Source: an uncultured Gammaproteobacteria bacterium (GTDB lineage Bacteria > Patescibacteriota > Microgenomatia > UBA8517). From it: a DNA stretch of 64,000 nt. The stretch lies in contig CAYSJW010000031.1 of NCBI GenBank assembly GCA_964431555.1, positions 336-64,335 on the forward strand, given 5' to 3'. The notes beneath the pieces are model-generated. The model had not been told where the DNA came from, searched no databases, and saw nothing but the letters and a program-made list of their open reading frames with translations. The translations under genes were made by a program, and so were the position numbers. Positions 7,996 to 54,499 of this stretch are shown here, in pieces (the stretch's first letter is position 1; the number at the start of each line of letters is the position of its first letter).

Positions 7996-9045
7996 TTAAG
8001 GGGTAATTTCAAATTCCACTTTATATTCATCTGCCAGAGCACCAAATTCTTCAAGAATTATCTTCTCAAGAGAATCTATTTCCACAAGCAACTCTTTTAT
8101 TTTTGACTTCTCAATCTTTTCTTCTGTCAATCTTTGTCTGGCATTGTCCCGCTCAACATTTCTTTGCGAAAAATTCATAATTTCAACAATAAAATTTTCA
8201 TCATCTTCTGTAGTATTTGACAATAAGTATCCATGCAATTTTTTCATTGTCTCTGAAAGATCATTGTGATATCCCTTCATCAGCTCATAATAATCAAGTT
8301 CGGTTTCGGGAATATCTTTTATATTATCAAATCTAAATGATGCTTCATTTGAAAGATCCACAAGATCCGAAAGAATTTCAGTCCATTTTTCTTTGTCTGA
8401 AACATTATTTTTAACAAGATTATCCAGTTCTTTAAGTTTGTTATTAAGATTCACTCCTGACGCTTCAAGCATTGTCATTTGGAAACGCTCGAAAGAGTAA
8501 AGTAGATTCAACGATTCTTCCGACTTATGATAATACTCGTTAAGTTTTGTATCAAAAGATTCCAATTCCTCTGGCACTTCGAGCTGCTCTCTTGTTTCTT
8601 GAGCTTTATGAATTAGGTCAAGAGTGGAACTAATATCAATAACGTCCTGCTTCGTATCTTCAAGCGCTGAAAAATAATCTCTGGGTGTAATAATTTCATA
8701 AAAAGCACCTTTACTAGTTTGTAAGGACTTGGATACTTCGATAAATGAACCTTTGAAGTAATCAATTTTATAGGTAATATCTTTTAAATCACCAGCAACA
8801 GCTTGCAGATATTCCTGTGCTTTTACATCAGGTGCTTTTTGCAGAAATTTAACTATAACTAAAATAGAAACAATCAAAGCGAGAATAATAGTAACTAAAA
8901 AATGTAAAATCCTGGATTTTCGAGAATTGTTTCGAATGGAAACTTGTAATTGAGGTAATTCGGTAAGTGCACTTTGTCTTTCCAAAGGTGCTTCAATAAT
9001 ATCAATTTGAGATATCTGCTGGTTTTCTATCTGATCTTTATCCAC
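7996..9045 (-). CDS. Single-pass membrane protein with a coiled-coil, hypothetical.
   Basis: A TM helix FLVTIILALIVSILVIV lies near the N-terminus. The rest is a long acidic, coiled-coil-like region. Confidence 0.4.
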   Translation of the reverse strand: MDKDQIENQQISQIDIIEAPLERQSALTELPQLQVSIRNNSRKSRILHFLVTIILALIVSILVIVKFLQKAPDVKAQEYLQAVAGDLKDITYKIDYFKGSFIEVSKSLQTSKGAFYEIITPRDYFSALEDTKQDVIDISSTLDLIHKAQETREQLEVPEELESFDTKLNEYYHKSEESLNLLYSFERFQMTMLEASGVNLNNKLKELDNLVKNNVSDKEKWTEILSDLVDLSNEASFRFDNIKDIPETELDYYELMKGYHNDLSETMKKLHGYLLSNTTEDDENFIVEIMNFSQRNVERDNARQRLTEEKIEKSKIKELLVEIDSLEKIILEEFGALADEYKVEFEITP

Positions 9046-9134: not shown

Positions 9135-10430
9135 CTATCCAAACATCAATAATTCCGGTCTAAAGATTAGAAGAAGCCCAATTATTATCATCAAAATTCC
9201 TCCAATAAGATGAGAGTAACGGGAATATTTTGTGCTTATCCCGGTCACCTCCAAAGTTACCATTGCTGTTAAAAAGACAAAAAGATCATCTAACATAAAT
9301 ACGAAAATATAAAGAATCATATACAAATAGTACTGAAACCTAGTCAAATTACTCAAAGCTAAAACCTGTGTAAAAACAACAGGTAAACCTGCAGAGCAAA
9401 TAAGTTCAACCAGATTTACGGCAAAGGCAAGCAAAACTATTCCACCCAAAGCCAGTAAAAATTTTTTCTCTTGAGTAATATTTTTAAGTCTATCAAATAC
9501 TTTTTGCCTTTTTTCATCACTTGTAACCTTACAACCACTATCTTTATTGACAATATATTCCCTTAGGTTATAACCCCCTCCACTCAACGCAACCAAACCA
9601 ATCAAAACCCTTACCCAAATAATAAAACCGATAAACAAAATTAGATTCAACCACGCGGCCATAAATAAAAGGTAAACAAATGCGGAAGAGAAAATAAAAA
9701 CACTACCCAAAATCCAGCGTCTTTTTTTATCCTTCATGCCAAGAAGCAAACTTATTAAAAAAAGAAGAGTCCACATTGCGCAGGGGTTAAAGCCGTCCAA
9801 CGCTCCCAATAGAATTGCCATAGCCGGAAGAGAAAGGTCTTTGATATTAATACTACCGAGCAAGGGAATATTTATATTCTTAGGTATCTGAATACTTTTA
9901 TCAATTGAATTACCCTCAACTAAATCGTCTGCTTGAATTGGAGTAACTGTTTCTGTAATTGTACTTGTAAGAATAGGGGTGTCTGTCAGCTGCTCGAGTA
10001 TAGGGGTGGGTGTATTTTTTACTCCCTCAAGCTCCCGGATTATGGCGCCAACAAGATCCGGGTCACCTTTCTCAACATATTTTTCATATAGATTTGTTAT
10101 AGTTTTTCCTGTTATCTCGTCATTATAATAACCAACAAAATAACCTTTACCAACAATGGTAATCGGTACTCCGCTCGTTTCTATTTTGAATTTTTCACCT
10201 ACTGTACGAAGTATAAAATTGCTTTGCGGATCACTAATCTCATAGTAATGAACTAATAAGTTCGGGTAATTAGGTGAAATTTTTTGGAGAAATTCCTTTT
10301 CTCTTGCGCAATGAGGGCACGTTTTTGACCAGAAAAGATAAAGGTTAACCTGATTTTCCCGGGCAAAAATAATATTAGGGAACAAAAAGCATACACTAAA
10401 AAATATAAATACTACAATTTTTTTCAACAT
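9135..10430 (-). CDS. Thiol:disulfide interchange protein. An N-terminal DsbA/TlpA-like thioredoxin domain (CPHC) is fused to a CcdA/DsbD-like transmembrane domain.
   Basis: A signal peptide and WSKTCPHCAREKEFL mark the thioredoxin domain. The TM domain carries Cys-containing motifs GFNPCAMWTL and ELICSAGLP, typical of the DsbD/CcdA electron-transfer core. Confidence 0.6.
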   Translation of the reverse strand: MLKKIVVFIFFSVCFLFPNIIFARENQVNLYLFWSKTCPHCAREKEFLQKISPNYPNLLVHYYEISDPQSNFILRTVGEKFKIETSGVPITIVGKGYFVGYYNDEITGKTITNLYEKYVEKGDPDLVGAIIRELEGVKNTPTPILEQLTDTPILTSTITETVTPIQADDLVEGNSIDKSIQIPKNINIPLLGSINIKDLSLPAMAILLGALDGFNPCAMWTLLFLISLLLGMKDKKRRWILGSVFIFSSAFVYLLFMAAWLNLILFIGFIIWVRVLIGLVALSGGGYNLREYIVNKDSGCKVTSDEKRQKVFDRLKNITQEKKFLLALGGIVLLAFAVNLVELICSAGLPVVFTQVLALSNLTRFQYYLYMILYIFVFMLDDLFVFLTAMVTLEVTGISTKYSRYSHLIGGILMIIIGLLLIFRPELLMFG

Positions 10431-10433
10431 AAT

Positions 10434-10718
10434 TTACTTTTCTTTATTCTCATTAATCACCCTAACTAGTTCTTCTTTATCTACTTCACCCGTTAATCGT
10501 AAAAATTCCTTACCCTCTTTATCCAAAAAAATAAAAACGGGTAAGTTTCCGCTTTCAATATCATACTTTTTTATTTTTTCTTTATCATTATCAAAATCAA
10601 AATATTCCGTTTCCAGCCAGGGATTTTCCTTTTCAATCTCCTGCCAACGTGGACGCATAACAAGACACCCAGAACACCAGACAGCTCCGATTTTCAATAC
10701 TTTCATGAACTTTCTCAC
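10434..10718 (-). CDS. Thioredoxin-family protein.
   Basis: A 94-aa thioredoxin fold with the WCSGC active site. Confidence 0.65.
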   Translation of the reverse strand: MRKFMKVLKIGAVWCSGCLVMRPRWQEIEKENPWLETEYFDFDNDKEKIKKYDIESGNLPVFIFLDKEGKEFLRLTGEVDKEELVRVINENKEK

Positions 10719-10731
10719 CTCCTTTCAAGTT

Positions 10732-10932
10732 TTAACCATTGCAATTACAACGGACGGGGTTTTTACCGTCTTTTTTAATAAAATAAATATTTTTTAAAGA
10801 CTGTACTATCTTCTTAGAGTGGCACTTCGGACAATAAAATTTTTTTGGATCTTTTCTGTCATATTCTCCAAAACTTGCATTCAGATCAAAATTGTTTTTA
10901 CACTTCTGGCAGATAAAACTATATGCTGGCAT
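10732..10932 (-). CDS. FmdB-family regulatory zinc-ribbon protein.
   Basis: MPAYSFICQKCKNNFD...YCPKCHS is the FmdB pattern MPxYxYxCxxC...CPxC. I chose the start at the internal Met so that it does not overlap the upstream ccdA. Confidence 0.65.
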   Translation of the reverse strand: MPAYSFICQKCKNNFDLNASFGEYDRKDPKKFYCPKCHSKKIVQSLKNIYFIKKDGKNPVRCNCNG

Positions 10933-10934
10933 AC

Positions 10935-11648
10935 TTAAAATAAAACCCATTTAACCAAAAACTGTAAATAATAAATTCCTGTTAAAAGAAAAATACTGGC
11001 AATCATTTTCCTACTCGCCTCCTCAATTTTCTGCACTACCGAAAAAGCTTTTCCAACTTTTTGTATACTGAAAGCTATAAGAAATGAAAAAACAATTACC
11101 GGAAGTCCTGTTCCAATAGCAAAAAATGGAGCAAGTAAAAGCGCTTCACTTGATGCCAAAACCATCGGAATAAGCACACCGAAAAACAACACACCGCTAT
11201 AAGGACAAAAAGCCAAAGCAAAAAGCATCCCCAGAAGTATCGATCCTAAATATCCTTTTGAAGCCAAATGTTCTTTTAGTTTTTCAATCTTCTCATTTTT
11301 ACTGCCGAAATCTATTTTTATAACGCCGAGCATAATCAGTCCTATGATAATTAAAACAGGCCCCAAAATTTTATCGCCCCATCCTTGAAAGATACGGGAA
11401 ATCTCAAATGAAGATAAGCCAAAGTAAATTAAAGTTGCCAGAACTGTATAGCTAATTCCCCGACCAAGCGTATAAAATAAACCGTTCAAGAGAGTGTAGC
11501 GAGAGGTATTTATATCCTTGGAAATATAAGCAATAGCAGTGATGTTGGTTGCCAAGGGGCAAGGACTAATGGAAGTTAAGATACCAATAAGGAATGCCGT
11601 TAAGACTGGAATGTTATATACATCAATAAGATAGTTTATGTAATCCAT
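10935..11648 (-). CDS. ccdA: Cytochrome c-type biogenesis / disulfide-bond electron-transport membrane protein of the CcdA/DsbD family.
   Basis: It has six TM helices. The SPCPL motif is in TM1 and a second conserved Cys, AFCPYSG, is in TM4. Confidence 0.7.
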   Translation of the reverse strand: MDYINYLIDVYNIPVLTAFLIGILTSISPCPLATNITAIAYISKDINTSRYTLLNGLFYTLGRGISYTVLATLIYFGLSSFEISRIFQGWGDKILGPVLIIIGLIMLGVIKIDFGSKNEKIEKLKEHLASKGYLGSILLGMLFALAFCPYSGVLFFGVLIPMVLASSEALLLAPFFAIGTGLPVIVFSFLIAFSIQKVGKAFSVVQKIEEASRKMIASIFLLTGIYYLQFLVKWVLF

Positions 11649-11650
11649 AA

Positions 11651-12145
11651 TTATTTCCCCAATAGTGTCTTTAATTTATTCTCAAAATAATTACTGAATT
11701 GTTTTTCATTACCAACCAACCTCCAGACGGTAACATCTTCTTCAATGTTATCTTTTTCCCCCCGAATAGCATTTAGAAAAAGAGACGGACCACGAGCTTT
11801 GTATTTCATTACGATATCTTTATTTTCAACCGATTCACCATTAATATCCATATAAACAATTTTTCCTGATTCATATTCGTTTGGAAACTTTTCTTTAATA
11901 GTCTTTAAGGCGTATTCACCAACAGTGATACATGACCAGCACTGTTGCGTGCCGTGGAAATGGATAACTTCTATTTTATCGGCAGGAGCAATAGACTGCG
12001 GAGCGTTAGAAACTGTATTTAGACCGGAATTTCCCAAGACAGGCTGCGTTTTGTTAATTTCTTTGTATTTGGAATTTTTATTAATCACAAAAAAGCCAGA
12101 TATACCCAAGATTATTAAAATAATAACTACAACATTTTTTCTCAC
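11651..12145 (-). CDS. Membrane-anchored CxxC protein (thioredoxin-like fold, CWSC).
   Basis: An N-terminal TM helix and the motif HFHGTQQCWSC. Its operon context is the thiol-redox genes. Confidence 0.4.
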   Translation of the reverse strand: MRKNVVVIILIILGISGFFVINKNSKYKEINKTQPVLGNSGLNTVSNAPQSIAPADKIEVIHFHGTQQCWSCITVGEYALKTIKEKFPNEYESGKIVYMDINGESVENKDIVMKYKARGPSLFLNAIRGEKDNIEEDVTVWRLVGNEKQFSNYFENKLKTLLGK

Positions 12146-12153
12146 ATTATTAT

Positions 12154-13308
12154 CTAAACCATGCCATAAAAAAATCCCGCTAAAGTAGTCAGAATTATAA
12201 TTGAAACTGCATAAACAAGCATCTTCTTAGAGCCTATAAGTTTTCTAATAACTAGTAATCCCTGCAAAGATAAAACAGGATCGGCTAAAAGATAAGCCAT
12301 TAAAGGTCCCTTATTCATCCCCAGTTTCATGAAATTTTCAGCAATTGGCACTTCCACCAAAGCAGGAAAATAAGCCAAAGCACCAAACATAACGGCAATA
12401 AAATTGGTAAGCAATGTATTCTTACTTGCTAAGGTTTGAAACTCCTCCCTCGGAATAAGTCGGGTAATCGCAGCAGCAAAAAACACACCAACTAAAAGCA
12501 AGGGAATGATCTGACTTATAAACTTAATTGTTTCATCCCACCAAGCAGTCCTTCTTGTTTTAGAGAGCCAGGAAAAAGCCATAAAAAGCAGCAAAAGTAC
12601 TAACGGCAAAATTAAACTGTATCGTAAACTACTGTCAATAGGAGCAGTACCAACTACCAATATAGCAACCAGTGTTCCCCAAAACCAAAAAGTTTTTTTA
12701 CCCTGAAGTTTATCTAAATCTTGGGCAACAACCTGAAAATTTCCATCTTCTTTACCATCGCCGAAAATTCTCTCCATAATCAGACCTACCAAAATAGCAA
12801 AGATGACAGATAAGACAAATCTTGCAAGACTAAAACTCCAGCCTAAACGCTGGCCTGTTAAAATTAAAGCCACGATATTGAAAGCAGGGCCAGCATAAAG
12901 CAAGGTCGTGGCAATTCCCAAACCAGCTCCTTTCTTCCAAACACCAGCAAAAAGCGGTAAAATTGTGCAGGAACAAACTTCAATTAAAAAGCCAGCTGTG
13001 ACTGCAATAGCATAAGCCAACCATTTTTTTGTTTTTCCTGAAAGATATTTAAGAACCGATTGAGAATCAACCAAACTGTTAATCGCTCCGGCAATAAAAA
13101 AAGCGGGTACTAAACAAAAAAGAACATGAGCTGAAAGATAATCAACTAATCCTAGCCAGCCTTGATAAACTGCCTGACCAATGAGATTCTGCACTTGCTC
13201 GGAAGCTAAAAAGCTTTCTATCTGACTTTGCCAAAGATAGATTACTAAATAAGAACCTCCCAAAAACCCCAAAGCCCAGTTTTTCTTAAACATTTTAATA
13301 ATCTTCAT
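12154..13308 (-). CDS. Permease of the DUF318/COG0701 family (two-CxxC-type predicted permease; paired with ArsR and a thioredoxin-like protein).
   Basis: A polytopic membrane protein with the internal Cys motif IEVCSCTILPLFAG. Its gene neighbourhood is the classic ArsR / redox-active disulfide protein 2 / COG0701 permease arrangement. Confidence 0.65.
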   Translation of the reverse strand: MKIIKMFKKNWALGFLGGSYLVIYLWQSQIESFLASEQVQNLIGQAVYQGWLGLVDYLSAHVLFCLVPAFFIAGAINSLVDSQSVLKYLSGKTKKWLAYAIAVTAGFLIEVCSCTILPLFAGVWKKGAGLGIATTLLYAGPAFNIVALILTGQRLGWSFSLARFVLSVIFAILVGLIMERIFGDGKEDGNFQVVAQDLDKLQGKKTFWFWGTLVAILVVGTAPIDSSLRYSLILPLVLLLLFMAFSWLSKTRRTAWWDETIKFISQIIPLLLVGVFFAAAITRLIPREEFQTLASKNTLLTNFIAVMFGALAYFPALVEVPIAENFMKLGMNKGPLMAYLLADPVLSLQGLLVIRKLIGSKKMLVYAVSIIILTTLAGFFYGMV

Positions 13309-13311
13309 AGG

Positions 13312-13557
13312 TCATTTCTCTTGTGATTCCTTAATAAGAGCTTTAATTTTCTCAATATCCGGAGTAAAGCCAACCATCACCGGTTTTCCATTAACTGCAA
13401 GAACTGGACTGCCTACTACACCCATTTCCACAATCTTTGATACATCTGTAACATACCCAATCTCTTCGTCTAAACCTAATTCTTTGACTGCCTGCTGAGT
13501 TAATTCATATAACTTCTTGCAAGTTGGACAACCAGAACCTAATACCTGAATTTTCAT
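13312..13557 (-). CDS. Redox-active disulfide protein 2 (small thioredoxin-fold protein, CPTC).
   Basis: An 81-aa protein, MKIQVLGSGCPTCKKL..., with the MTH895/TIGR00412-like architecture. Confidence 0.7.
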   Translation of the reverse strand: MKIQVLGSGCPTCKKLYELTQQAVKELGLDEEIGYVTDVSKIVEMGVVGSPVLAVNGKPVMVGFTPDIEKIKALIKESQEK

Positions 13558-13883
13558 AGTTCCACCTCCTCCTGCGGAATGCTAAACAGCAAATTAGCAA
13601 TATATCTACCCTTAATAGTAAGTGAGTAATATACCCTTAAGCCCCGTTTCTCATCAGTAACCAAACCGGCATTTTTTAGATCTTTGAGATGATGGGAAAT
13701 AAGGCTTTGGGACATGCCAACATGCTCCATCAGCTCGCAGACGCAATGTTTTCCATTTTGGAGAATACACAAAAGTTTCAATCTGCTTTCTTCTGAAACT
13801 AATCTTAAAAGATTTGATAGAGAACTAACTTTCTTTGAACTATTGGCAGATAAAGAACAACAACTATATGAACCCATATTCAT
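13554..13883 (-). CDS. ArsR/SmtB-family metalloregulatory transcriptional repressor.
   Basis: The HTH is CELMEHVGMSQSLISHHLKDLKNAGLV. A metal-sensing Cys pair CVC precedes it. It is the first gene of the minus-strand redox operon. Confidence 0.75.
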   Translation of the reverse strand: MNMGSYSCCSLSANSSKKVSSLSNLLRLVSEESRLKLLCILQNGKHCVCELMEHVGMSQSLISHHLKDLKNAGLVTDEKRGLRVYYSLTIKGRYIANLLFSIPQEEVEL

Positions 13884-13940
13884 ATATATTAGGTGAAGAA
13901 TTATTTATAAGCAATAGTTATTTTGAATGTAGTTAGTTTT

Positions 13941-14123
13941 TTAATACCTTACTTTGAAGTTGAATATCTTTAACCTGTAATCTTCAATTTTCATCATTTG
14001 ATCTGCTGTTAATCCCTTAAAATATTTTATTATTGGACGAATGGAATTGCTGTGAGCAACTATCAAAACATTAATCTTTTCATTTCTCATTTTTTGGATA
14101 ACCTCTTTAATGAAAGAAAGCAC
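13941..14123 (-). pseudogene. C-terminal fragment of a histidine phosphatase (phosphoglycerate mutase GpmA-like).
   Basis: NVLIVAHSNSIRPIIKYFKGLTADQMMKIEDYRLKIFNF aligns with the GpmA C-terminus [38 protein letters not shown]. A possible short upstream piece starts with an ATG near 14273 in a shifted frame (MRKTIIEKRNF...). The total is far too short for an intact enzyme. Confidence 0.4.
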
Positions 14124-14383
14124 CCTTTTTTCAACTTCAATTATACTCTCCTTTCCAAGAAGATTTAGCTATTAACTCTTTAAAATCCAATATTTTTCTA
14201 CAAAACGAAAATCTCAGTTTCTTATCTATTAACCTCACAGGGAAATTTCTTTTTTCAATAATTGTCTTTCTCATACAGTCTGTGTATTTATTTACCTCAC
14301 TCAAATTCTATTAACCAATTCTTAGAAACAGCTGAAATTATACATAATAAAAAAAGACCTTGTAATTAAGTTGAGAAAATTCT

Positions 14384-14399: not shown

Positions 14400-17300
14400 A
14401 TGCAACCGGAAAACAATCTATCAATAGAAAATAATATCTTTAAAGAAGACTATCAAGCTAGTGAAAATTTTTTCAAAAAGATACTTTCTAAAATAAAAAA
14501 CATCTTTACTTTAGCTTTCATTAGAATAAAAACAGCCTGGCTGAGTATACCCAAAAAAACTAGGTTTATCATATCCCCGCTGATTATTCTTACACTTGCA
14601 CTACTTATACTCACGTTGGTATCAAAAAAGTTCAAACCCATAGATAGCATAAGGCGAATCACTCAAGAGGATATCATTAAACAATATTCTGAAGGATGGT
14701 CAAAACTTCAAATTCCCCAAAGAGAACCTGCTTTTTTCACTCTTAAACCGCAAACTCAAAGCAGATACGGCATCCTTCCCAAAGAGACATTTACACTAAA
14801 AACTAAAGAAGCTCTTGAGGAATCTTACATAAAAGAGAATTTAAACTCAAATATCCCAATTAAAATTACATCCGTTTCCAGTACCGAATTCAGAATTACA
14901 AGCGAAAAAGTTTTAGGAAATGACGAAATTGTTTCATTTAACTTACCGGTTAAAAACAAGAAAATCAGCAATCATACTTTTGACAGAAACTACGGATGGA
15001 CATTTCAGACTCAAGGCAAATTTAGAGTTACATCCACTATTCCCGGAAACGAGAAAAAGGACGTTCCACTAAATACTGGAATAGAAATTGTCTTCAGTCA
15101 AGATGATTACAAAGACCCGAAAGACTATATTACGATTACACCTGACATTGAATGGAGGGGGGAAAGACATGGAGAAACTTACGCAATCATTCCCATTAAA
15201 AAACTTAAAGCAAAAACAATCTATACAGTAACACTTAAAAAGGGGTTAAATTTGGAATCACGAAACGATCCAATTGGAGAGGATTTTACTTTTTCCTTCC
15301 AGACACAAGAGTTGGCTGATCCTCAAATGACTACAAGATCTCCAAGAATATCTTTAAATGAAAACTTCATACAAGTTTCAACAAATGAACAACCACCAGC
15401 TGTCAGTGTCTACACATCAAATTGGAAGAACGATTTAAGTCTTAAAACAAAAATCTATAAATTTCCAAACAGCACTCTATTTATCGAATCTAGAAAAAAA
15501 ATAGATGAAGCATCTTCAAATTGGTGGTCATATTTTGCAGAAGACCAAGAAATTTCAACCGAAAACTTAGCCAAAGTTGCTGAAATGGATCTCAAACTCC
15601 AAGAAAAGGATAATGTTGACTACATCCAACTTCCAGAAACTCTGCCTGAAGGCATGTATCTTGTCCAATTTTGGTATGAAGACGGTAAAAAACTCGAGCA
15701 GCTCTGGCTTCAATCAACAAATATTTCCGGATATATATCCGTAGGACGAAAACAAACACTTGTCTGGGTAAATGATGTTGCATCGGGAGAACCGGTAAAA
15801 AGCGCTCAGATAATACCTATTGGAACTAGTTTAAATTATTCAACAAGTGACAATGGAATTGCCGTCTTCTCAACTCCTCAAATTTTTTACGACAAACTAA
15901 TTCATTATATTAAAGTAGCTTCCGATAAAGGCGAGTTAATTTTACCCGTAAATTCGCTTAAAGGATATACCAAACCACAAGAAAAAAATTCCAATGATTA
16001 CTGGTCCTATCTTTACCACGAAAGACGTCTTTATAAACCGGAAGACACAGTTTATTTCTGGGGAGTAATAAAAGAAAGAGACACCGGTCTTATTCCCTCA
16101 AATATAAAAGTAAGTCTTACCAGCGGATATTACTATTACCCACCAAACGAAAATCTCCCGCTTAAATCCGTGGATATTACTCCCGATACCAATGGTTCTT
16201 TTATTGGTAATATAACATTGACAAATATTCCAAAAGGATATTATGAACTTTCCCTAACAGTGAATGAGGTCTGGATTGAAAGCAGTTACCTTCAAATTAC
16301 AGAGTATGAAAAACCCGAAATGAAAATTGAGGTTACTTCTGAAAAGAAAGCCATTTTTTCAACAGAAAAAAACAACTTTACTGCAAAAGTAAGCTTTTAC
16401 GACGAAACCCCAGCAAAAGGGGTTCCTCTAAACATATATAAATCGTTATACTCAAGTGGAGATAAAATTGAATTAAAAACTGACGCAAAAGGAGAAATAA
16501 AATACACTTATCAACCTCAATACGAAAAAGAAAGCAGTAATTACTCATATTATCCACGATATGAAAGTATAACAATTAGTCCTGCGCTAGCGGAGGAATC
16601 CAACATTGAAGGTTTTGGAAGCGTTTACGTTTATGGTTCAAAGCTGATGATCACATCAAAATCCAAACAAGAAGGGAATAAGGCATATCTTTCCGCAACA
16701 GTGAATAAAGTCAACTTAGATAACATAAATAAAGGAATCTCATCTGATGTAAAAGGAGATATTATTCCCAATAAAGAAGTCAGTATGAATATTACAAAAA
16801 CATGGTGGGAGAAAATTGAAGAAGGAACTTATTATGATTTCATCGAAAAAACCACCAGACCTTCCTATAAATATCAAAGACACGACGAAAAAATTGTTGA
16901 CACCAAATTAAAAACAAACGGAAATGGGGAAATTTCATTCGAGTTTAACATGGAAAATGATAAGTCCTATCATTTAATCTTGTCTACTAGTGATGAGGAT
17001 AATCACAAAACTTACGCGAATGAATATTACTATTACCATAAAGGTGATCAAGACTATTCTTTTTATAATGAGTCATATGAGTCCAGATATTCTGGTCTTA
17101 CTTTAGATAAGAAAGAAAACACTTACTCCGTAGGAGAAGATGTTAACTTAAGCATTAAACTAAAAGGTGAAAACTTCCCTGACAATGAAAAAAATAGATT
17201 CCTTTTTATATTAGCCCAAAGAGGAAATCAAGACTTTTTCGTTGAAGAAGGACCAAAATTCAGTTTTACCTTCGAGAAAAAACACATACCCGCTATCTAT

Positions 17301-19643
17301 GCAGCAGCCGTGATCTTTACCGGAAAACACTACCAAATTGTAAGTCATTACTGTTCCTGGGATTGGGCGTGTTCGTATAATTACAATTATTATAATTACT
17401 TCCCTTCTCTGGCAATTTATTATAAAAACAGCGATAGCAAATTAGAATTAGAGTTATCCTCAGACAAAGAAAAATACAAACCGGGAGATAACGCAAAAAT
17501 ATCCGTTTCTGTTAAAAAAGACGGTCAATTTGTTTCCAATGTACAAGTTAATTTAGTCTTAGTTGACCTTGCACTGGAAGCAATAGGAGGAGTTAAAAAA
17601 CCTTCAATTTTAGGTAGTCTTTATAGACCAGTTCCCGCTGAAATCTACTACGAGTATTACTCTCATAAACCATTCTTTCCGTATCCCCCAGAAGCTGAAC
17701 GTGGAGGAGGAGGAGGGGGAGATTACAGAGAAATCTTTAAAGACACGCCTTTTTTTGGATCAGCAAAAACAAATGAAGAAGGCATTGCCAATTTTGAATT
17801 TAAACTACCTGACAATATAACTACATGGTCAATTTACGCCCAAGGACTTTCAGAAAACTTTGACGCAGGGCAAACTGAAGGTAAAATAATATCGAGCAAA
17901 GAATTCTTTGTCACTAGCAACTTCCCTAAAGAATATCTGCAAAAAGACATAAGTTTCATAACGGGAAACGGGTTCGGAAACGCCATAGAGCAAAACCAAA
18001 CAATTTCCTATGAAGTAACGATATTAAAAGGCGATAATCAAATAGATAAAAAATCCGGCGAAGGAAAGACACTGAAAGACAAATCATTCCAACTTCCCTA
18101 CTTACAAACAGGCGAATATAGGGCTTGGCTGAAGGGAACCGCAAATAATCTTGTTGACGGAGTCGTCTATCCTTTTAAGGTAATCGAATCAAGGCTGGAT
18201 TTGCAAATGAACAAAAAGTACAAAATCGAAAAGGGAAACTCACTCGAGAGTATAAGCATCCCAGCCTTAAATAGTAAAAAACCTGTGAGACTTATCTTAA
18301 GTGACATTGGCAGAGGACAATATTACCTCCAGCTTTTCACTTTTTGCAATCTATACAGCAATCGTATTGAGAAAAGATTGGCAAAATCAAAAGCTAATTC
18401 TTTAATTTTAGAAAAATTTAACGAACAACCCTGTAAGGTAAGAAGTGAGGATTTAGTTGTTTATCAAAATTATGATGGTGGTATCTCGCAAGTTCCCTGG
18501 GGAGGAAGTGTACTTGAAACAACAGTCTGGGCAGTTTTAGTTGACCCAAACGCCTTTGATAAAGAAAAACTCACAAAATTCTTTGAAGGAAAATTAAATA
18601 ATAATCAAGGGGGAGACATCCAGAAAATATATTCACTATGGGGACTAACTCTTTTAGGCAAACCACATATAAATGAACTACTTACATTGGCTCAAAATTC
18701 AAAAGAATTTCAGGAAAAGATAATAAGCGCCTTGGCTTTGGCAAGCATCGGTGAAATAGAAATTCCCAGAGAGATTTATTATGACTTATTAGCAGATTTT
18801 GCTTACACGAATAAACCCTATATCCGCATTCAAACTCCCCTTAATAACAACAAAACCGTTGATGAATATGTCAAAAATACAGGTTTAATGCTTCTTTTAG
18901 GAAGCATGGTTGAAAAGGAATACAACGAGGGATTATATCTCTATATTAGAGATTATCAAAATCAAGTTGAAGACATAGTTATCGACCTTGGTAAAATCGC
19001 ATTTATCAGCGAAGAGTTAAGTAAACTCCCCGCTGAGGATACTCAAATAATTTTCAAATCCGCTTCCCGCGAAGAGTTAATTGATCTTTCAAAAGGGATG
19101 AGTAAAAGTATATTACTTCTTGAAGGAGAAATTGACACGACAAAATTAACTATCAATTCAGGCAAGGCCGAAGTTTTAGTTAATTATTTTGTTACCCCTG
19201 ATATCTTTAATCAAATTACTCAAGATAACAGACTTGAAATAAAAAGAGAGTATAAAAAAGTTAAAGGAGAAGGGAACACCATTAATCCGGGAGATATAGT
19301 TGAAATAAAAGTAAGTTTTGGTCTAGATTCAAAAGAAGCGCCACTTGGAAGTTACACAATAACAGATCACCTACCCTCAGGTTTAACATATATCAAAAAC
19401 CCCATAATCTACGGACTTGAAAAAAAGGGCTGGGCTGAAGAGGAAACAAATAACGTAATTAAATACAATTTCTACAATTCAACTTGGTGGCAAAAATACA
19501 GTGAAAGATTCTTCACTTATTATGCCAGAGCAACAGCAGTTGGAACATATGTTGCCGAACCTTGTATAATACAATCTAACTTGGACTTATCTGTAATCAA
19601 AAGTACATCAGAAGAAAAAGTTACAATAGAAAGCAAAAATTAA
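14400..19643 (+). CDS. Large protein of the alpha-2-macroglobulin family, of the thioester-less bacterial MagD/YfaS type. It has an N-terminal TM anchor and is 1747 aa.
   Basis: A TM helix lies at about aa 55-75. The A2M-domain signature FKDTPFFGSAKTNEEGIANFEFKLPDNITTWSIYAQGLSE matches FxETAFFxPxLxTDxxGxxxFxFxLPDSLTxWR. The downstream motif YQNYDGGISQVPWGGSVLETTVWAVLV matches the A2M TED-like motif YQxxDGsFxxW...WLTA. No CxEQ thioester motif was found. Confidence 0.6.
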   Translation: MQPENNLSIENNIFKEDYQASENFFKKILSKIKNIFTLAFIRIKTAWLSIPKKTRFIISPLIILTLALLILTLVSKKFKPIDSIRRITQEDIIKQYSEGWSKLQIPQREPAFFTLKPQTQSRYGILPKETFTLKTKEALEESYIKENLNSNIPIKITSVSSTEFRITSEKVLGNDEIVSFNLPVKNKKISNHTFDRNYGWTFQTQGKFRVTSTIPGNEKKDVPLNTGIEIVFSQDDYKDPKDYITITPDIEWRGERHGETYAIIPIKKLKAKTIYTVTLKKGLNLESRNDPIGEDFTFSFQTQELADPQMTTRSPRISLNENFIQVSTNEQPPAVSVYTSNWKNDLSLKTKIYKFPNSTLFIESRKKIDEASSNWWSYFAEDQEISTENLAKVAEMDLKLQEKDNVDYIQLPETLPEGMYLVQFWYEDGKKLEQLWLQSTNISGYISVGRKQTLVWVNDVASGEPVKSAQIIPIGTSLNYSTSDNGIAVFSTPQIFYDKLIHYIKVASDKGELILPVNSLKGYTKPQEKNSNDYWSYLYHERRLYKPEDTVYFWGVIKERDTGLIPSNIKVSLTSGYYYYPPNENLPLKSVDITPDTNGSFIGNITLTNIPKGYYELSLTVNEVWIESSYLQITEYEKPEMKIEVTSEKKAIFSTEKNNFTAKVSFYDETPAKGVPLNIYKSLYSSGDKIELKTDAKGEIKYTYQPQYEKESSNYSYYPRYESITISPALAEESNIEGFGSVYVYGSKLMITSKSKQEGNKAYLSATVNKVNLDNINKGISSDVKGDIIPNKEVSMNITKTWWEKIEEGTYYDFIEKTTRPSYKYQRHDEKIVDTKLKTNGNGEISFEFNMENDKSYHLILSTSDEDNHKTYANEYYYYHKGDQDYSFYNESYESRYSGLTLDKKENTYSVGEDVNLSIKLKGENFPDNEKNRFLFILAQRGNQDFFVEEGPKFSFTFEKKHIPAIYAAAVIFTGKHYQIVSHYCSWDWACSYNYNYYNYFPSLAIYYKNSDSKLELELSSDKEKYKPGDNAKISVSVKKDGQFVSNVQVNLVLVDLALEAIGGVKKPSILGSLYRPVPAEIYYEYYSHKPFFPYPPEAERGGGGGGDYREIFKDTPFFGSAKTNEEGIANFEFKLPDNITTWSIYAQGLSENFDAGQTEGKIISSKEFFVTSNFPKEYLQKDISFITGNGFGNAIEQNQTISYEVTILKGDNQIDKKSGEGKTLKDKSFQLPYLQTGEYRAWLKGTANNLVDGVVYPFKVIESRLDLQMNKKYKIEKGNSLESISIPALNSKKPVRLILSDIGRGQYYLQLFTFCNLYSNRIEKRLAKSKANSLILEKFNEQPCKVRSEDLVVYQNYDGGISQVPWGGSVLETTVWAVLVDPNAFDKEKLTKFFEGKLNNNQGGDIQKIYSLWGLTLLGKPHINELLTLAQNSKEFQEKIISALALASIGEIEIPREIYYDLLADFAYTNKPYIRIQTPLNNNKTVDEYVKNTGLMLLLGSMVEKEYNEGLYLYIRDYQNQVEDIVIDLGKIAFISEELSKLPAEDTQIIFKSASREELIDLSKGMSKSILLLEGEIDTTKLTINSGKAEVLVNYFVTPDIFNQITQDNRLEIKREYKKVKGEGNTINPGDIVEIKVSFGLDSKEAPLGSYTITDHLPSGLTYIKNPIIYGLEKKGWAEEETNNVIKYNFYNSTWWQKYSERFFTYYARATAVGTYVAEPCIIQSNLDLSVIKSTSEEKVTIESKN

Positions 19644-47933: not shown

Positions 47934-49910
47934 GTGAAAAGATTTCCCTTTTTCAATACAGTTACTGTGCTTTTTCCTCTCTTAATCTTTTTATCAATTT
48001 TCTCAATAACCCTAAGCCAGATTTTTCTTTTAGAACCAAAAATGGTCAAGAAAACTACTTTACCTAATCAACTAGCAGGTCGGGTAATTTCTTCAACTTG
48101 CCATGAACCAATGAGTGGGTGTGGCAGTAATTACTATTGGGATTCACAGACCTGCTCTTGTAAATGTGTTACGAGTAATACCTGTCCAACTAATTATTAT
48201 TGGAATACAACCTCATGTTCGTGTGTTCCTCAAACAACCACCAATAAAACAACTTGTGACCCGCAATACTGCGGGATCAATCGTTACTGGGATGAATCTT
48301 CATGCTCGTGTAAATGCGCATCCTTCACTGCCTGCCCGACGGATCAGTACTGGGATGTTGCATCCTGCAGTTGCTTGCCTTCTACATCAGCAAACTTTAC
48401 CCCCACTCCTACAACCAAAACTTCCCCAACTACCACAAGCAGTATCACTGATTGTACCCAGCAATATTGTGGTTTAAACCGCTACTGGGATCACGCATCT
48501 TGTTCATGCAAATGTGCATCATATACTGCCTGTCTAACAAATTACTTCTGGGATACCTCATCCTGTAGTTGTCTTCCTTTAACCGAAACGAATACCAAAA
48601 CTACTTCAGAACCATCAAGTTGCACAACACCAACTTCGGATTGTCCTGCAAATTATTATTGGGACAGCAAAACTTGCTCCTGCAAATATTTGATAACAAA
48701 TCTTGACAGACTTGCCCATGAAACTCCCGAAGTAACCACATGTGTCAAATCAAAGTTGGCAGATTACGAGTATCAAAGATTTAGATATTTTATACCCACC
48801 ACCCAGCAAGATTTTGATGAAATAGAAAATCTCCACGATAGAGTTTTAGATTGTTGGAGATTAGAAATATCAGCTTCTGAAACAGCTCAAATTAAAACTA
48901 CATTAATTGAAAAAGAAAAATGTCTCATCAATTCCATCGGAGAAAATGCATACCGTCAAATTTATGAAGGAAAAAGGTCCCCCACCCAAAATGAGCATTT
49001 GTGGTTTGAAAAATGCTTCGGAAATATTCCAGCAAGTACGGTTGTTTTCCTTGATAAGGATGAGAATCTCTCAAAGGAAACTATTTCCTGCCTCAAAAAA
49101 ACACTTGGGCCAGATTTATATCAAAAGGTGTATTCTCAAAAGGCTCAAGTACCAGCCAACCTACAAAAGGGGGTTGAAATTTGTTTCGGGGCAAAATCAC
49201 AACCGTTTGAAATTGGTTCCGTATACAAAATTCCTGAATCCGTAAGAAACTGCTTAACACAAAACTTAGGGGAAGTAAAAATTGACATGTTAATTGAGGG
49301 TGTAGCCCAGTTAACTGAAGACAAAAAGGAAAAAGCCGTATCATGTTTTGAAATGATTAACCAATCCCAGAAAAAATTTCTTCCGCCCCCACCCGAACAA
49401 ATTCCCTTTATCAAAGAAAGTGATTCTATAAAAGTTACAAACGTAAAACAGGAGAAAAAAACCATAAAGAAAAAGACCTATGGAGGCAAAATAACGCTGG
49501 AGGGCAGAGCTACACCAAATAGCATCGTCAATCTCTATTTCTTTTCAGAGCCAATCGTCGTCACCACAAAAACCGATGAAAACGGCGACTGGATTTTTGA
49601 AATGCAAAAGCCGATGGATGAGGGAAAACATATTGTTTATGCTATGACAAAAACCGAAGAGGGTAATTTGATTAGATCATCAATTTTAAGTTTTGAAGTC
49701 ATCGCGGCAGAAAAGGTATCAACTCCCCAAATTTTTCTTGAAGAAGACAAAGTTACAAGTGTAACAAAAGATTTCATATACTATTCTTTAGCCGCAATAC
49801 TGATAATATCTTTAATTATTTCTGGAAGTATTTTTTACATTCAAACAAGCAAAAAAATAAATAAAATGGGAGAAAATGAATTAAACAGGAATAGTAAAAC
49901 TAAACCTTGA
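47934..49910 (+). CDS. Secreted, C-terminally membrane-anchored protein. It has about seven tandem Cys-rich repeats (C...YYWD...CSC), a C-terminal Ig-like domain and a GTG start.
   Basis: A signal peptide is present. The repeats alternate CxxQYCGxNRYWDxxSCSCKCASxTA with CxTNYYWxTxSCSC[LV]P between aa 60 and 265. A Big-like domain follows (GRATPNSIVNLYFFSEPIVVTTKTDENGDW) and then a C-terminal TM helix. Confidence 0.6.
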   Translation: MKRFPFFNTVTVLFPLLIFLSIFSITLSQIFLLEPKMVKKTTLPNQLAGRVISSTCHEPMSGCGSNYYWDSQTCSCKCVTSNTCPTNYYWNTTSCSCVPQTTTNKTTCDPQYCGINRYWDESSCSCKCASFTACPTDQYWDVASCSCLPSTSANFTPTPTTKTSPTTTSSITDCTQQYCGLNRYWDHASCSCKCASYTACLTNYFWDTSSCSCLPLTETNTKTTSEPSSCTTPTSDCPANYYWDSKTCSCKYLITNLDRLAHETPEVTTCVKSKLADYEYQRFRYFIPTTQQDFDEIENLHDRVLDCWRLEISASETAQIKTTLIEKEKCLINSIGENAYRQIYEGKRSPTQNEHLWFEKCFGNIPASTVVFLDKDENLSKETISCLKKTLGPDLYQKVYSQKAQVPANLQKGVEICFGAKSQPFEIGSVYKIPESVRNCLTQNLGEVKIDMLIEGVAQLTEDKKEKAVSCFEMINQSQKKFLPPPPEQIPFIKESDSIKVTNVKQEKKTIKKKTYGGKITLEGRATPNSIVNLYFFSEPIVVTTKTDENGDWIFEMQKPMDEGKHIVYAMTKTEEGNLIRSSILSFEVIAAEKVSTPQIFLEEDKVTSVTKDFIYYSLAAILIISLIISGSIFYIQTSKKINKMGENELNRNSKTKP

Positions 49911-52870: not shown

Positions 52871-54499
52871 TTACCACCCTGAAACATCACCTTTTACAGC
52901 TATCAAATAATTCGACCCAGAATAAATCCCAGCTACTGTATTTTCCGGAACTTTAATTCCCCAGTAAATGCTTTTTTCCCGAAACGTTTTAGTAGGTTTT
53001 TTCAAGTCAAGATCAAAATACTTCATCCCCTTCCCCAAAGGGAAGGCATCCCAGAAACAAATTTTAGATAGCGCATAACGTTGATTTTCCACTGATATTT
53101 TATATTCACCGGCATTAACAAGGTCAGTCCCATATAAAATTGCATCCAAACCAACATTGCTAAAAGATCTAATCTTAGTTTCTTTTGATAAGGGGTCTAT
53201 AACCTGGCCTATATTCAATTCCCCATATTCTATTCCAGAATCCAAATCAAAAGAAATAAGACTATTCATCTCAACTCCGATTGACACCTCCCTTTCCGAA
53301 ACAAAACCATTATCATCCTCAACTCGCAATGTTGCTTTCCAATCATCGGTAGAAAAAAAGGTTCCTTTATCAGTTGGGTCGGCATAATACCAGACCTCAA
53401 TATCACACTGGTAATTTAAAGTGGCATCCTTAGGATGTTCACAAAGCTCACCCTCAACTAAACTACAAGAAATACTAGGATAACAATAATTATTGTTAGC
53501 TTGGTAAATTGATTTGCAGCCCTGATAACCGACAGATGATCGATAAAGACTGGCTGTAACTGACTTTATTTCATCTTGACTACAGGAGTTTCTATCGCTG
53601 ACAGTTGCAGTAACTTTCACCAAAGTTTTTGTATTTGGAAAAAGATTGATATCCCTCCCCTGATTTAAAACCAAACTCATAGTTTCCGGATAGATATTAT
53701 TCACCCCGAAAGAACTCTCAACCCCCTGCAAACTAGATTGAGATTCCATACCATGTTCATCCACCAAAAAAACGTAAGCTTTATGGAGATTATCTTTCTC
53801 AATATCAGGAATCCTGTAACTGCAAGTCGGATTATTTGAAGACAATTCACTTTCGCAATATACTCCATCACTACATCTACCATTAGAAAAAGAAGGAGAA
53901 CTACAAACAAAAATTTTTGTCCTGTCTCTTCCCCCTATCACATCGGGGTCAAATGACTTAACACTCCAAACAATTAAACCACTAGGATAATCACTACCAT
54001 TATTGGTCACCGAAATAAATTCGGGAGGGTGATTTACATAAAACGGAGATCCTTGAGATCCTGAGCCTTGATAGGAATCTGAACAATAACCTGTTCCAAA
54101 ACTACAAAGAAAAGCAAACCAATCGTTCTCTTCAGAATCATCAATCCTTGCCATATACTCACATTTGGCATTATTTCCATTTTCCGTTAATTCGCTCATA
54201 CACCACATACCTTGAGGGCACGAAGGTGGATGTCCAGCATTTGAAATAATCTCGTCGGTTTTACATACAATAAAATAGTAACTGGGCGACTCCGGATCGT
54301 AAGCCTGGGCGTTAAAAATTATCTTTTCACCCGCATTTGTGGGCAGACCAACAGAGCTTTCAGGATCCTCCAGCGGACCATAAGTAAAGTGCGGAATATC
54401 CGCAACATAAACAACAACATTTACAGTTTGGGCATTAACCCTTGCAATAACAAAAGAAAAAAGAAAAAAGCCAAAAAAAATAGGCAGGGTTTTAAACAT
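52871..54499 (-). CDS. Secreted Cys-containing protein, paralog A1 of 56878-58590.
   Basis: A signal peptide. It shares two repeated Cys domains with the paralog (YYFIVCKT... and IFVCSSPSFSNGRCSD...CSYRIPD...YVFLVDEHG). The shared C-terminal motif is IYWGIKVPENTVAGIYSGSNYLIAV. Confidence 0.5.
   Translation of the reverse strand: MFKTLPIFFGFFLFSFVIARVNAQTVNVVVYVADIPHFTYGPLEDPESSVGLPTNAGEKIIFNAQAYDPESPSYYFIVCKTDEIISNAGHPPSCPQGMWCMSELTENGNNAKCEYMARIDDSEENDWFAFLCSFGTGYCSDSYQGSGSQGSPFYVNHPPEFISVTNNGSDYPSGLIVWSVKSFDPDVIGGRDRTKIFVCSSPSFSNGRCSDGVYCESELSSNNPTCSYRIPDIEKDNLHKAYVFLVDEHGMESQSSLQGVESSFGVNNIYPETMSLVLNQGRDINLFPNTKTLVKVTATVSDRNSCSQDEIKSVTASLYRSSVGYQGCKSIYQANNNYCYPSISCSLVEGELCEHPKDATLNYQCDIEVWYYADPTDKGTFFSTDDWKATLRVEDDNGFVSEREVSIGVEMNSLISFDLDSGIEYGELNIGQVIDPLSKETKIRSFSNVGLDAILYGTDLVNAGEYKISVENQRYALSKICFWDAFPLGKGMKYFDLDLKKPTKTFREKSIYWGIKVPENTVAGIYSGSNYLIAVKGDVSGW

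Follow-up and report, generated by a model that had tools for sequence, protein, structure and literature searches.

A trio made up of a CcdA homologue, a thioredoxin and a 'redox-active disulfide protein 2' was recognised as a set of new ars-operon determinants (Castillo and Saier 2010, PMC2963123). That survey comprised eight instances, seven of them with arsC; it considered that the CcdA homologue might move electrons across the membrane, and favoured a role in supplying ArsC (PMC2963123). More generally, DsbD-family proteins hand electrons to extracytosolic thioredoxin-like proteins (PMC8238504), and the pneumococcal Etrx lipoproteins are described as defending against extracellular oxidative stress (PMC3914529). 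Here, we analyse eight consecutive genes, led by an ArsR-type regulator and rich in thiol-disulfide proteins, which occupy positions 9135 to 13883 of a 64,000-nucleotide stretch of contig CAYSJW010000031.1 (hereafter, the window). The named relatives of the GltX protein encoded in the window are Woesebacteria and Microgenomates, and the host is a bacterium of the candidate phyla radiation.

On balance, we regard these genes as a composite metal(loid)-responsive envelope-stress operon, in which a thiol-dependent efflux permease would be accompanied by two thiol relays running from the cytoplasm to the outside of the cell. They look like a composite operon, and not like a dedicated machine for folding the Cys-rich surface proteins of the window, as had been proposed in an earlier annotation made from the sequence alone (hereafter, the original prediction). 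That annotation had seen a disulfide relay with two CcdA-type conduits, and the anatomy does fit two thiol relays; it is the notion of one dedicated eight-gene machine that does not hold, the operon being built, to judge from gene neighbourhoods, of two units that also exist separately.

Gene content of the operon

The eight open reading frames (ORFs) follow one another in a single orientation, on the minus strand between 13883 and 9135, with intergenic distances, in gene order, of -4, +3, +8, +2, -16, +13 and +3 nt. The original prediction had already placed eight closely packed genes here, in agreement with the ORF list and with Pfam and NCBIfam, which back seven of the eight gene assignments, the last gene being the exception. 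The genes are as follows (scores after 'vs' are the family cut-offs):

13554..13883, minus strand: ArsR/SmtB-family metalloregulator (PF01022, HTH_5, 72.5 bits; NF033788, 87.3 vs 55)
13312..13557, minus strand: ArsE/TrxE, 81-residue Trx-like protein with CPTC ('redox-active disulfide protein 2'; PF13192, 74.9 bits)
12154..13308, minus strand: ArsP_1 (COG0701) permease with C112-S-C114 (PF03773, 224.9 bits vs 32.3, residues 52-382)
11651..12145, minus strand: ArsF-family protein, N-terminal membrane anchor and Trx-fold domain with CWSC (NF040494, 89.3 vs 60)
10935..11648, minus strand: ArsG-family, DsbD_2-type six-helix membrane protein of 237 residues (NF040495, 292.7 vs 200, residues 11-229; PF13386, 69.1)
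10732..10950, minus strand: FmdB-type zinc ribbon, CxxC...CxxC (TIGR02605, 33.8 bits vs 31.3)
10434..10718, minus strand: Trx7, small cytoplasmic thioredoxin with WCSGC (PF14595, Thioredoxin_9, 38.5 bits; PF00085, 30.8 bits)
9135..10430, minus strand: P8, 431 residues, CPHC domain and six-helix membrane domain (no Pfam or NCBIfam family)

We use the name P8 for the 431-residue product of the last gene, Trx7 for the WCSGC thioredoxin and TrxE for the 81-residue Trx_3/ArsE protein. Unit A designates ArsR-ArsE-ArsP-ArsF-ArsG (13883-10935), and unit B designates Trx7-P8 (10718-9135). Each unit comprises a cytoplasmic CxxC Trx, a membrane protein of six helices, the first and fourth of which hold one cysteine each, and a CxxC Trx-fold domain predicted to face outward. 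All of the cysteine motifs listed in the original prediction are present, and their invariance, or near-invariance, among homologues shows that they are not there by chance. As for the reported gene overlaps, the 4-nt overlap between the arsR and arsE genes stands; that of the FmdB gene with the arsG gene is improbable, the FmdB gene probably starting at Met7 (10932), hence without overlap. For the trx7 gene, the probable start is 10706, which is also that of the public gene call. The FmdB protein scored 31.4 bits with Pfam Zn_ribbon_8 (PF09723), under the cut-off of 34.4; its gene was found neither in L081, a related locus described below, nor in any of the 160 surveyed loci (designated by L numbers), and is a lineage-specific accessory. 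Terminator and promoter scans inside the operon returned weak consensus matches only.

The recurrent ArsR-ArsE-ArsP-ArsF-ArsG cassette

ArsR possesses an N-terminal Cys-Cys pair and a C47-V-C49 motif in its DNA-binding domain (C47 is conserved in 37 of 38 homologues, C49 in 22), and it scored under the cut-off of every named NCBIfam equivalog. ArsE falls in TIGR00412, the MTH895/ArsE family (81.1 bits vs 62), and its CxxC is conserved in 58/58 homologues; both ArsE and Trx7 are devoid of a signal peptide and, from their sequences, should be cytoplasmic. The CxC motif of the permease is conserved in 48/48 homologues, and the protein scored under the cut-offs of both the SO_0444 (Cu/Zn) and the SaoE equivalogs. 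The ArsP protein of Campylobacter jejuni depends on its vicinal cysteine pair.

The fourth and fifth genes, previously described as encoding a membrane-anchored CWSC protein and a CcdA, are real, and the NCBIfam scores given above provide the sharper labels ArsF and ArsG. ArsF has no match in Pfam; its soluble domain adopts a Trx fold (hhalign probability of 94.5% against the N-terminal domain of P8 and of 83% against TrxE), its CxxC is conserved in 60/60 homologues and the domain is predicted to face outward. In ArsG, the cysteines of helix 1 (SPC30P) and helix 4 (FC148P) are both conserved in 78/78 homologues, and they align with each other in a weak internal repeat (E=0.003). Searches of the PDB sequences with ArsF and ArsG returned nothing useful.

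Gene neighbourhoods were compared for 80 ArsG homologues of metagenomic origin, many of them on short contigs. The gene encountered most often around ArsG is ArsF, adjacent in 68/80 loci, followed by TrxE and the permease (55/80 each) and ArsR (49/80). Both ArsF and TrxE are present in all 19 of the well-flanked loci, which have at least 4 kb on each side of ArsG (12 of them from outside the candidate phyla radiation, CPR, and seven CPR-like). The common order is ArsR-Trx-Perm-ArsF-ArsG in CPR and ArsR-Trx-ArsF-ArsG-Perm outside CPR, e.g., on a Fulvitalea plasmid. Hence, ArsR-ArsE-ArsP-ArsF-ArsG is a recurrent five-gene cassette, complete in the 19 well-flanked loci, a member of a known ars-type kind, widespread in uncultured sediment and groundwater CPR, in Bacteroidota and in others; the CWSC protein and the CcdA-like protein are not an expansion special to the window, as had been thought.

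The cassette is accompanied by arsC and/or acr3 in 6/12 well-flanked non-CPR loci and in 1/7 CPR-like ones (7/19 overall). The order is ArsR-Acr3-Trx-Perm-ArsF-ArsG in L092 and wHTH-ArsF-ArsG-Trx-permease-ArsC-ACR3 on a Prevotella nigrescens plasmid. As far as such comparisons tell, this evidence ties the cassette to arsenic or related metalloids. Together with the operons described in PMC2963123, it points towards the ars-type system that the original prediction had set against its own interpretation.

The Trx7-P8 pair

P8 represents a large family, with more than 7400 homologues in a word-indexed search and at least 1105 clusters at 50% identity (E<=1e-30), and a presence in at least 597 species-level genomes, of which nearly all belong to Patescibacteria. 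The AlphaFold2 model of P8, with a mean predicted local distance difference test score (pLDDT) of 80.9, shows a cleavable-looking signal peptide, the CPHC domain, a disordered linker and six long membrane helices, of which helices 1 and 4 are broken exactly at C217 (DGFNPCAMW) and C345 (VELICSAGLP). Among 125 representatives (50% identity), the cysteines C38, C41, C217 and C345 are conserved in 121-125 (C217 in 124 and C345 in 125), and C300, which lies in a strongly basic central loop, is near-invariant, being replaced by Ser or Thr in eight. Counting the sequence against the helices of the model, there are 16 Lys and Arg residues in the predicted inner loops vs two outside. This positive-inside bias and the signal peptide place the CPHC domain, as modelled, outside the cell. 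The CxxC of Trx7 is conserved in 31/31 homologues.

The outer domain of P8 had been regarded as DsbA-like. It does possess CPHC; its fold, however, is glutaredoxin-like, without the DsbA helical insert. The model, with a pLDDT above 90 in this domain, displays the order beta-alpha-beta-alpha-beta-beta-alpha (E28-34, H39-54, E58-64, H68-81, E90-93, E96-99 and H104-121; E, strand; H, helix) and no alpha-helical insertion. The C38-P-H-C41 motif is invariant in the P8 alignment and, as in DsbA, the residue before the cis-Pro position is a Val. Among the best matches of the domain to PDB sequences are 3IC4, 1FO5 and 1J08 (Pyrococcus glutaredoxin-like). Since 3IC4 and 1FO5 also carry CPHC, this motif is not diagnostic for DsbA and does not fix the direction of the electron flow. 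The glutaredoxin-like thioredoxin of Methanocaldococcus jannaschii is strongly reducing. A Foldseek search with the full P8 model returned thioredoxins only, and the outer domain resembles, by its sequence, archaeal glutaredoxin-like thioredoxins rather than DsbA.

The membrane domain of P8 and ArsG have a layout in common: an outer N-terminus, six helices, a basic loop in the centre and one Cys in each of helices 1 and 4. By its predicted topology, P8 crosses the membrane six times in an N-out/C-out arrangement and has a Trx-fold partner on either side, the CPHC domain fused to it and Trx7 encoded next to it. In the neighbourhoods of 80 P8 homologues from species-level genomes (L001-L080), Trx7 lies directly upstream of P8 in 32 loci, with a median gap of 4 nt. 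TrxB is found nearby in 6/80 loci, a peroxiredoxin in five, ZIP in seven, CDF in six and CopA in four. These last two genes of the operon, which the original prediction read as part of the expansion of an ArsR module, are an independent pair across Patescibacteria, cassette-free in the closest relatives.

Several other observations concern this family. DUF134 (27/80 loci) and DUF5320 (22/80) are repeatedly encountered in Patescibacteria upstream of P8 and in its orientation (examples: L081, 209-880; L085, 2679-3350; L086, 3502-4106), and DUF134-DUF5320 may be the usual regulator or partner of Trx7-P8. A linkage with FUR/Znu as a general trait of P8 was rejected, as it is confined to the lineage of the window, with FUR in 2/80 loci. 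The idea that the P8 forms of about 530 residues are Trx7-P8 fusions was also rejected, the outer Trx domain being instead duplicated in tandem; in these long forms (P0062, P0104 and P0012; loci L007 and L012), the first Trx copy has CPHC and the second CPLC. An ORF of 224 residues with an N-terminal hydrophobic segment and no family lies between Trx7 and P8 in L081 (9033-9707); it is absent from the window and from 80/80 P8 loci. Downstream of P8 in the window, 89 nt past its gene and on the same strand (7996-9045, minus), is the gene of a 349-residue protein with no cysteine, one membrane span and no family assignment, which is not kept downstream of P8 elsewhere and may or may not be co-transcribed with it.

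Some contigs with a P8 homologue (43-52% identity) bear the label Bacillota, Bacilli or Tenericutes (L062, L075 and L076), each with Trx7, and others that of DPANN or other archaea (L003, L014 and L052; Aenigmatarchaeota, Pacearchaeota and Bathyarchaeia), mostly without Trx7. These cases could reflect a true spread to other reduced-genome organisms or binning errors. Many contigs with a Patescibacteria-type P8 and Trx7 bear titles such as 'uncultured Gammaproteobacteria' or 'Bdellovibrionales' (L001, L006, L008 and L017, 'binchicken'), and the titles of 'binchicken' records look unreliable as taxonomy. Our literature searches on disulfide-bond systems in Patescibacteria and on CcdA/thioredoxin in CPR yielded nothing on a Trx7-P8-like system, and those on TsoR nothing relevant.

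Composite origin and recurrent linkage of the two units

The nearest relatives of the window locus display its parts in separate states. L085 and L086, with P8 proteins 69% and 65% identical to that of the window, have the order DUF5320-DUF134-FUR-Znu-YibE_F-His_Phos_1-Trx7-P8 and no ArsR cassette; L081 has the cassette between His_Phos_1 and Trx7; and L083 has the cassette alone. The His_Phos_1 gene (histidine phosphatase), intact at the same position in L081, L085 and L086, has left a trace in the window:

13947..14156, minus strand: His_Phos_1 remnant, C-terminal 70 residues (tblastn with the L081 product)

The remnant corresponds to residues 123-192 of the 193 residues of the L081 product (68.6% identity, E=3e-28). 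It is the scar of the ancestral gene order upstream of arsR, and it marks the rearrangement that removed the ancestral DUF5320-DUF134-FUR-Znu-YibE_F genes. From this remnant and the gene orders of the relatives, the window descends from an L081-like arrangement, the upstream part of which has been lost. The place of the lost genes is now held by a gene divergent from arsR (14400-19643, plus strand), which encodes a membrane-anchored alpha-2-macroglobulin-like protein of 1747 residues with A2M, A2M_BRD, MG2, bMG10 and Big_5 domains.

P8 is directly adjacent to the cassette, or to its ArsR-TrxE-permease core, in 5/80 P8 loci, as compared to about 0.06 expected (P ~5e-9 by a rough binomial estimate that ignores shared ancestry); the cassette or core lies within 10 kb of P8 in 7/80 loci. 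A survey of gene neighbourhoods across relatives, as suggested in the original prediction, hence reveals two separate units, which yet adjoin each other beyond chance. Their arrangement varies. The cassette precedes Trx7-P8 in the window, L081 and L095, and P8 stands upstream of ArsR in L003 and L142. In L002, L009, L016 and L029, P8 occupies the ArsF-ArsG slot behind ArsR-Trx-permease (Trx7 precedes it in L002 only), and L002 and L009 have no ArsF or ArsG within 10 kb of P8. In L104 (416-4939), Trx7 and a short P8 ORF of 277 residues, which may be a fragment or a frameshifted gene, lie inside the cassette, between the permease and ArsF. In L034 (342-4875), TrxB, P8 and an ORF for a 211-residue lipoprotein-like protein precede a 566-residue ArsG::ArsP_1 fusion, with the ArsG domain at residues 6-234 and the ArsP_1 domain, including CSC, at residues 311-559.

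These differing gene orders point to repeated selection for the linkage of the cassette with P8, and the two units are, as judged from their neighbourhoods, functionally linked. The substitution of P8 for ArsF-ArsG and the ArsG::ArsP_1 fusion suggest that P8 does the job of both ArsF and ArsG, and that ArsG works with the permease.

A candidate ArsR operator

Two features were noticed at the start of the operon:

13865..13886, no strand: candidate ArsR operator, 22-bp palindrome TATATGAA-N6-TTCATATA, spanning the arsR start codon
13900..13927, minus strand: promoter-like site, TTCAAA, 16 nt, AATAAT (consensus scan only, 9/12 matches)

The TGAA-N6-TTCA core of the palindrome occurs at the same position in 9/31 ArsR loci, for an expectation of 0.014 per 260 nt; L081 and L083 have it as well. 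The arms reach, in the majority of these loci, TATATGAA/TTCATATA; they are imperfect in L083 and L121. The conservation covers non-coding bases, and the wobble T before TCA is conserved although the codon stands for G, N, H, D or S. Owing to its conserved position, its non-coding bases and this wobble T, the palindrome is, from sequence comparison, a good candidate for the ArsR operator. The promoter-like site sits 14 nt upstream of the palindrome and is weak evidence by itself.

Proposed mechanism and its alternatives

In the mechanism that we propose, the palindrome that covers the arsR start codon is most likely where ArsR represses the operon, and the binding of a thiol-seeking metal(loid) would release ArsR from it. 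By analogy with C. jejuni ArsP, the ArsP_1 permease would then expel trivalent thiol-reactive species via its CxC pair. The ArsE-ArsG-ArsF relay would bring reducing equivalents, in that order, to the outer face of the membrane, where they may keep the thiols of the permease, and other envelope thiols, reduced or metalloid-free. In unit B, electrons would pass from Trx7 to C217/C345 of the P8 membrane domain, then to the tethered CPHC domain of P8 outside the cell; Trx7-P8 would be a second, more compact housekeeping relay, and P8 a fused analogue of ArsF plus ArsG. With the ancestral upstream genes lost, the ArsR promoter would be the only visible driver of the eight genes. As Trx7-P8 otherwise sits behind DUF5320-DUF134 and metal-uptake genes, or replaces ArsF-ArsG, unit B probably has a general role in maintaining extracytoplasmic thiols when the cell meets metal or oxidative stress. 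The gene content, the family memberships, the invariant cysteines, the modularity and the recurrent linkage are observations, from which the details of topology, the direction of the electron flow, its target, the inducer and the co-transcription are inferred.

Several points weigh against this mechanism. In the study from which the NCBIfam names derive, Chen, Zhang and Rosen are said to have described, in 2019, ArsEF as a nitroreductase for roxarsone and nitarsone, and ArsG as an efflux permease, functions that differ from those of a relay. Neither arsC nor acr3 was found in the 64-kb window by tblastn with the Prevotella ArsC and Acr3, nor was any other canonical arsenic gene; as arsC/acr3 accompany only one of the seven well-flanked CPR-like cassettes, the inducer in CPR may not be arsenic. 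Most P8 proteins function independently of the cassette, which is near only 7/80 P8 loci, and the co-transcription of the eight genes is assumed from their spacing alone. The direction of the electron flow is likewise our inference, and an oxidising role of P8 is conceivable, as CPHC and the Val before cis-Pro are a DsbA signature too.

The membrane domain of P8 adds to these difficulties. The original prediction called it CcdA/DsbD-like, which fits the layout of its cysteines and helices; no DsbD or CcdA model, however, matches it. It has no hidden Markov model match in Pfam or NCBIfam, and none in a PDB sequence search. Local hhalign comparison with ArsG gave probabilities of 0.6% (close homologues) and 10% (diverse representatives); the global mode gave 44%, with P8 C217 aligned to ArsG C30 and the second cysteine out of register. 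No internal repeat is detectable in the domain, ArsG serving as the positive control (E=0.003). Foldseek with the membrane-only model (pLDDT 73) found no PDB match at E<=0.001; CcdA (5VKV) ranked fourth (E=1.4), with template modelling (TM) scores of 0.41/0.44 over 243 columns, the best of the list, for a usual same-fold threshold of 0.5. By analogy, the P8 membrane domain may work like CcdA; these comparisons fall short of supporting a homology to it.

The window does encode Cys-rich secreted proteins, as the original prediction had noted, with no or weak family assignments:

47934-49910, plus strand: secreted protein with 36 Cys in 658 residues, CXCXC repeats and a Big_13 domain
52871-54499, minus strand: secreted protein with 17 Cys in 542 residues
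56878-58590, minus strand: secreted protein with 18 Cys in 570 residues
24030-24605, plus strand: type IV pilin with 4 Cys

The operon might be an oxidative folding or isomerisation machinery for these proteins and the pilin, with the CPHC domain of P8 as the DsbA-like enzyme, re-oxidised by the membrane domain; we consider this doubtful. The invariant CPHC with its Val before cis-Pro, the presence of such substrates in the window and the spread of P8 over at least 597 species-level genomes, as for a housekeeping enzyme, all speak for it. To our knowledge, moreover, CPR bacteria have no quinones, so that DsbB or VKOR could not work in them and another oxidase would be needed. Yet the CPHC domain is glutaredoxin-like, without the helical insert, and closest to archaeal proteins that also have CPHC; the cytoplasmic thioredoxin partner, with TrxB nearby in several genomes, is the signature of a reducing pathway; and genes 1-5 are an ars-type cassette. 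There is no evident oxidant or quinone site, no DsbB or VKOR partner in the operon, and no similarity of P8 to either in sequence and structure searches. The supposed service to Cys-rich surface proteins finds no link either: these proteins lie 34-47 kb away, and Cys-rich exoprotein-like ORFs within 10 kb of P8 homologues (about 8/80 loci, or about 0.4 per 64 kb, vs 3-4 in the window) give no sign of enrichment in a comparison that has no proper control. A bolder idea, to which we also give little credence, is that Trx7-P8 represents a family of transmembrane thiol-disulfide conduits not described before, without sequence relationship to DsbD/CcdA, DsbB or VKOR, and is the main route setting the redox state of exported cysteines in quinone-less Patescibacteria and perhaps in some reduced-genome Bacillota. 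In its boldest version, electrons would run 'backwards', from the secreted proteins to CPHC, Trx7 and thioredoxin-consuming enzymes, and would thereby provide quinone-independent disulfide formation for pilins and Cys-rich surface proteins.

The names given by the databases may also be taken literally, ArsE and ArsF reducing the nitro group of trivalent roxarsone or nitarsone, ArsG exporting the aromatic amino-arsenical and ArsP exporting other trivalent organoarsenicals. All three proteins do exceed the NCBIfam cut-offs, ArsG as an equivalog, RefSeq uses the same names for the Fulvitalea and Prevotella cassettes, and the substrates exported by ArsP of C. jejuni include methylarsenite, MAs(III), and roxarsone in its trivalent form (PMC6205960). 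We nonetheless find this improbable, as roxarsone and nitarsone are synthetic feed additives, for which so widespread a cassette cannot have evolved; no flavin or metal cofactor domain is recognised in ArsE or ArsF, both of them Trx-fold proteins with CxxC, and their apparent locations, cytoplasmic for ArsE and outward for ArsF, are awkward for a two-subunit soluble enzyme. Besides, ArsG belongs to the DsbD_2 family, with both family cysteines invariant, and the ArsG::ArsP_1 fusion is easier to reconcile with a redox partner than with another pump working in parallel. In our reading, nitroreduction by ArsEF would be incidental to a thiol relay of more general use. Less probable still is an accidental juxtaposition of a mobile ArsR cassette with an unrelated housekeeping pair, Trx7-P8 having its own promoter. 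The separate occurrence of the pair in the closest relatives and of the cassette in L083, the lack of a nearby cassette in 73/80 P8 loci and the rearranged region upstream of arsR, with its His_Phos_1 remnant, are in keeping with such an accident, against which stand the at least five gene orders (window/L081/L095; L104; L142/L003; L002/L009/L016/L029; L034), the direct adjacency far beyond chance, the replacement of ArsF-ArsG by P8 in four loci and the gaps of 13 and 3 nt, too small for a separate promoter outside coding sequence. Finally, P8 might mainly handle metals, its CPHC and membrane cysteines binding or passing a soft metal such as Zn or Cu: Trx7-P8 is, in the nearest relatives, the last part of an operon FUR-ZnuA/C/B-YibE_F-His_Phos_1, ZIP, CDF and CopA transporters recur near P8 (as counted above), and copper-resistance ScsC-type proteins are among its weak PDB matches. 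This appears very unlikely, as the conserved partner is a thioredoxin and not a metallochaperone, an external CxxC with one cysteine in each of two membrane helices is the pattern of a thiol-disulfide conduit, P8 has no His- or Met-rich metal motifs and the FUR/Znu linkage is limited to one lineage.

Comparison with known systems

Automated pipelines will name genes 2, 4 and 5 of the operon after roxarsone chemistry (nitroreductase subunit; aromatic aminobenzylarsenical efflux permease). Their anatomy and invariant cysteine pairs, the ArsG::ArsP fusion and the P8 substitution suggest, instead, that ArsE, ArsF and ArsG form a general thiol relay serving a thiol-dependent permease. ArsF and ArsG are likely mis-named and, if this interpretation is true, thousands of ArsE/F/G annotations are misleading. 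P8 probably sets the redox state of extracytoplasmic cysteines in organisms without respiratory chains, which makes it a concrete candidate for how such cells make or protect the disulfides of their pili and surface proteins. Our analysis also illustrates how the comparison of neighbourhoods can separate what looks like an 'operon' of eight genes into modules: genes 1-5 are known as an ars-type cassette, and P8 is a large unnamed family.

Similarly to ArsEFG of Shewanella putrefaciens 200 (Chen, Zhang and Rosen 2019, Environ Sci Technol 53:6182), the families of which ArsE, ArsF and ArsG match above the NCBIfam cut-offs, the window genes are clustered with ArsR and an ArsP_1-type permease, and the same cassette occurs in Bacteroidota near arsC/acr3. 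In contrast to ArsEFG, the window lacks arsC, acr3 and any other arsenic gene, a CPR host is unlikely to meet synthetic nitro-arsenicals, and the anatomy suggests a thiol relay rather than a nitroreductase and a pump. Compared with the operons surveyed in PMC2963123, the redox trio is the same; here arsC is absent, the unit includes ArsP_1 and it is joined to a second relay, Trx7-P8. The permease has in common with C. jejuni ArsP the PF03773 family and the invariant vicinal cysteine pair in a membrane helix, and differs from it by belonging to a cassette in which it is always paired with a Trx_3 protein.

The two relays follow the same logic as CcdA-ResA/CcmG, CcdA-Etrx-MsrAB2 and ScsB-ScsC, i.e., a cytoplasmic Trx, a two-Cys membrane protein and an outer CxxC acceptor, in that order. 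ScsB-ScsC confers copper tolerance, and the stress-defence context of this pathway and of pneumococcal Etrx is like that of the window operon. No cytochrome c maturation or Msr genes lie near the operon. ArsG is a true DsbD_2 member, whereas P8 has no model match and carries its acceptor domain fused N-terminally to the membrane domain. P8 is reminiscent of DsbA/DsbB (VKOR) by its CPHC, its Val before cis-Pro and the attachment of an exported Trx domain to a Cys-bearing membrane protein; it differs from them by the lack of the helical insertion and of DsbB/VKOR similarity, and by its partner, a cytoplasmic thioredoxin. As to MJ0307 (1FO5) and the Archaeoglobus fulgidus Grx-1 (3IC4), the outer domain of P8 is alike in its small fold and CPHC; these archaeal proteins are free and cytoplasmic, whereas the P8 domain is, by its predicted topology, exported and tethered to the membrane.

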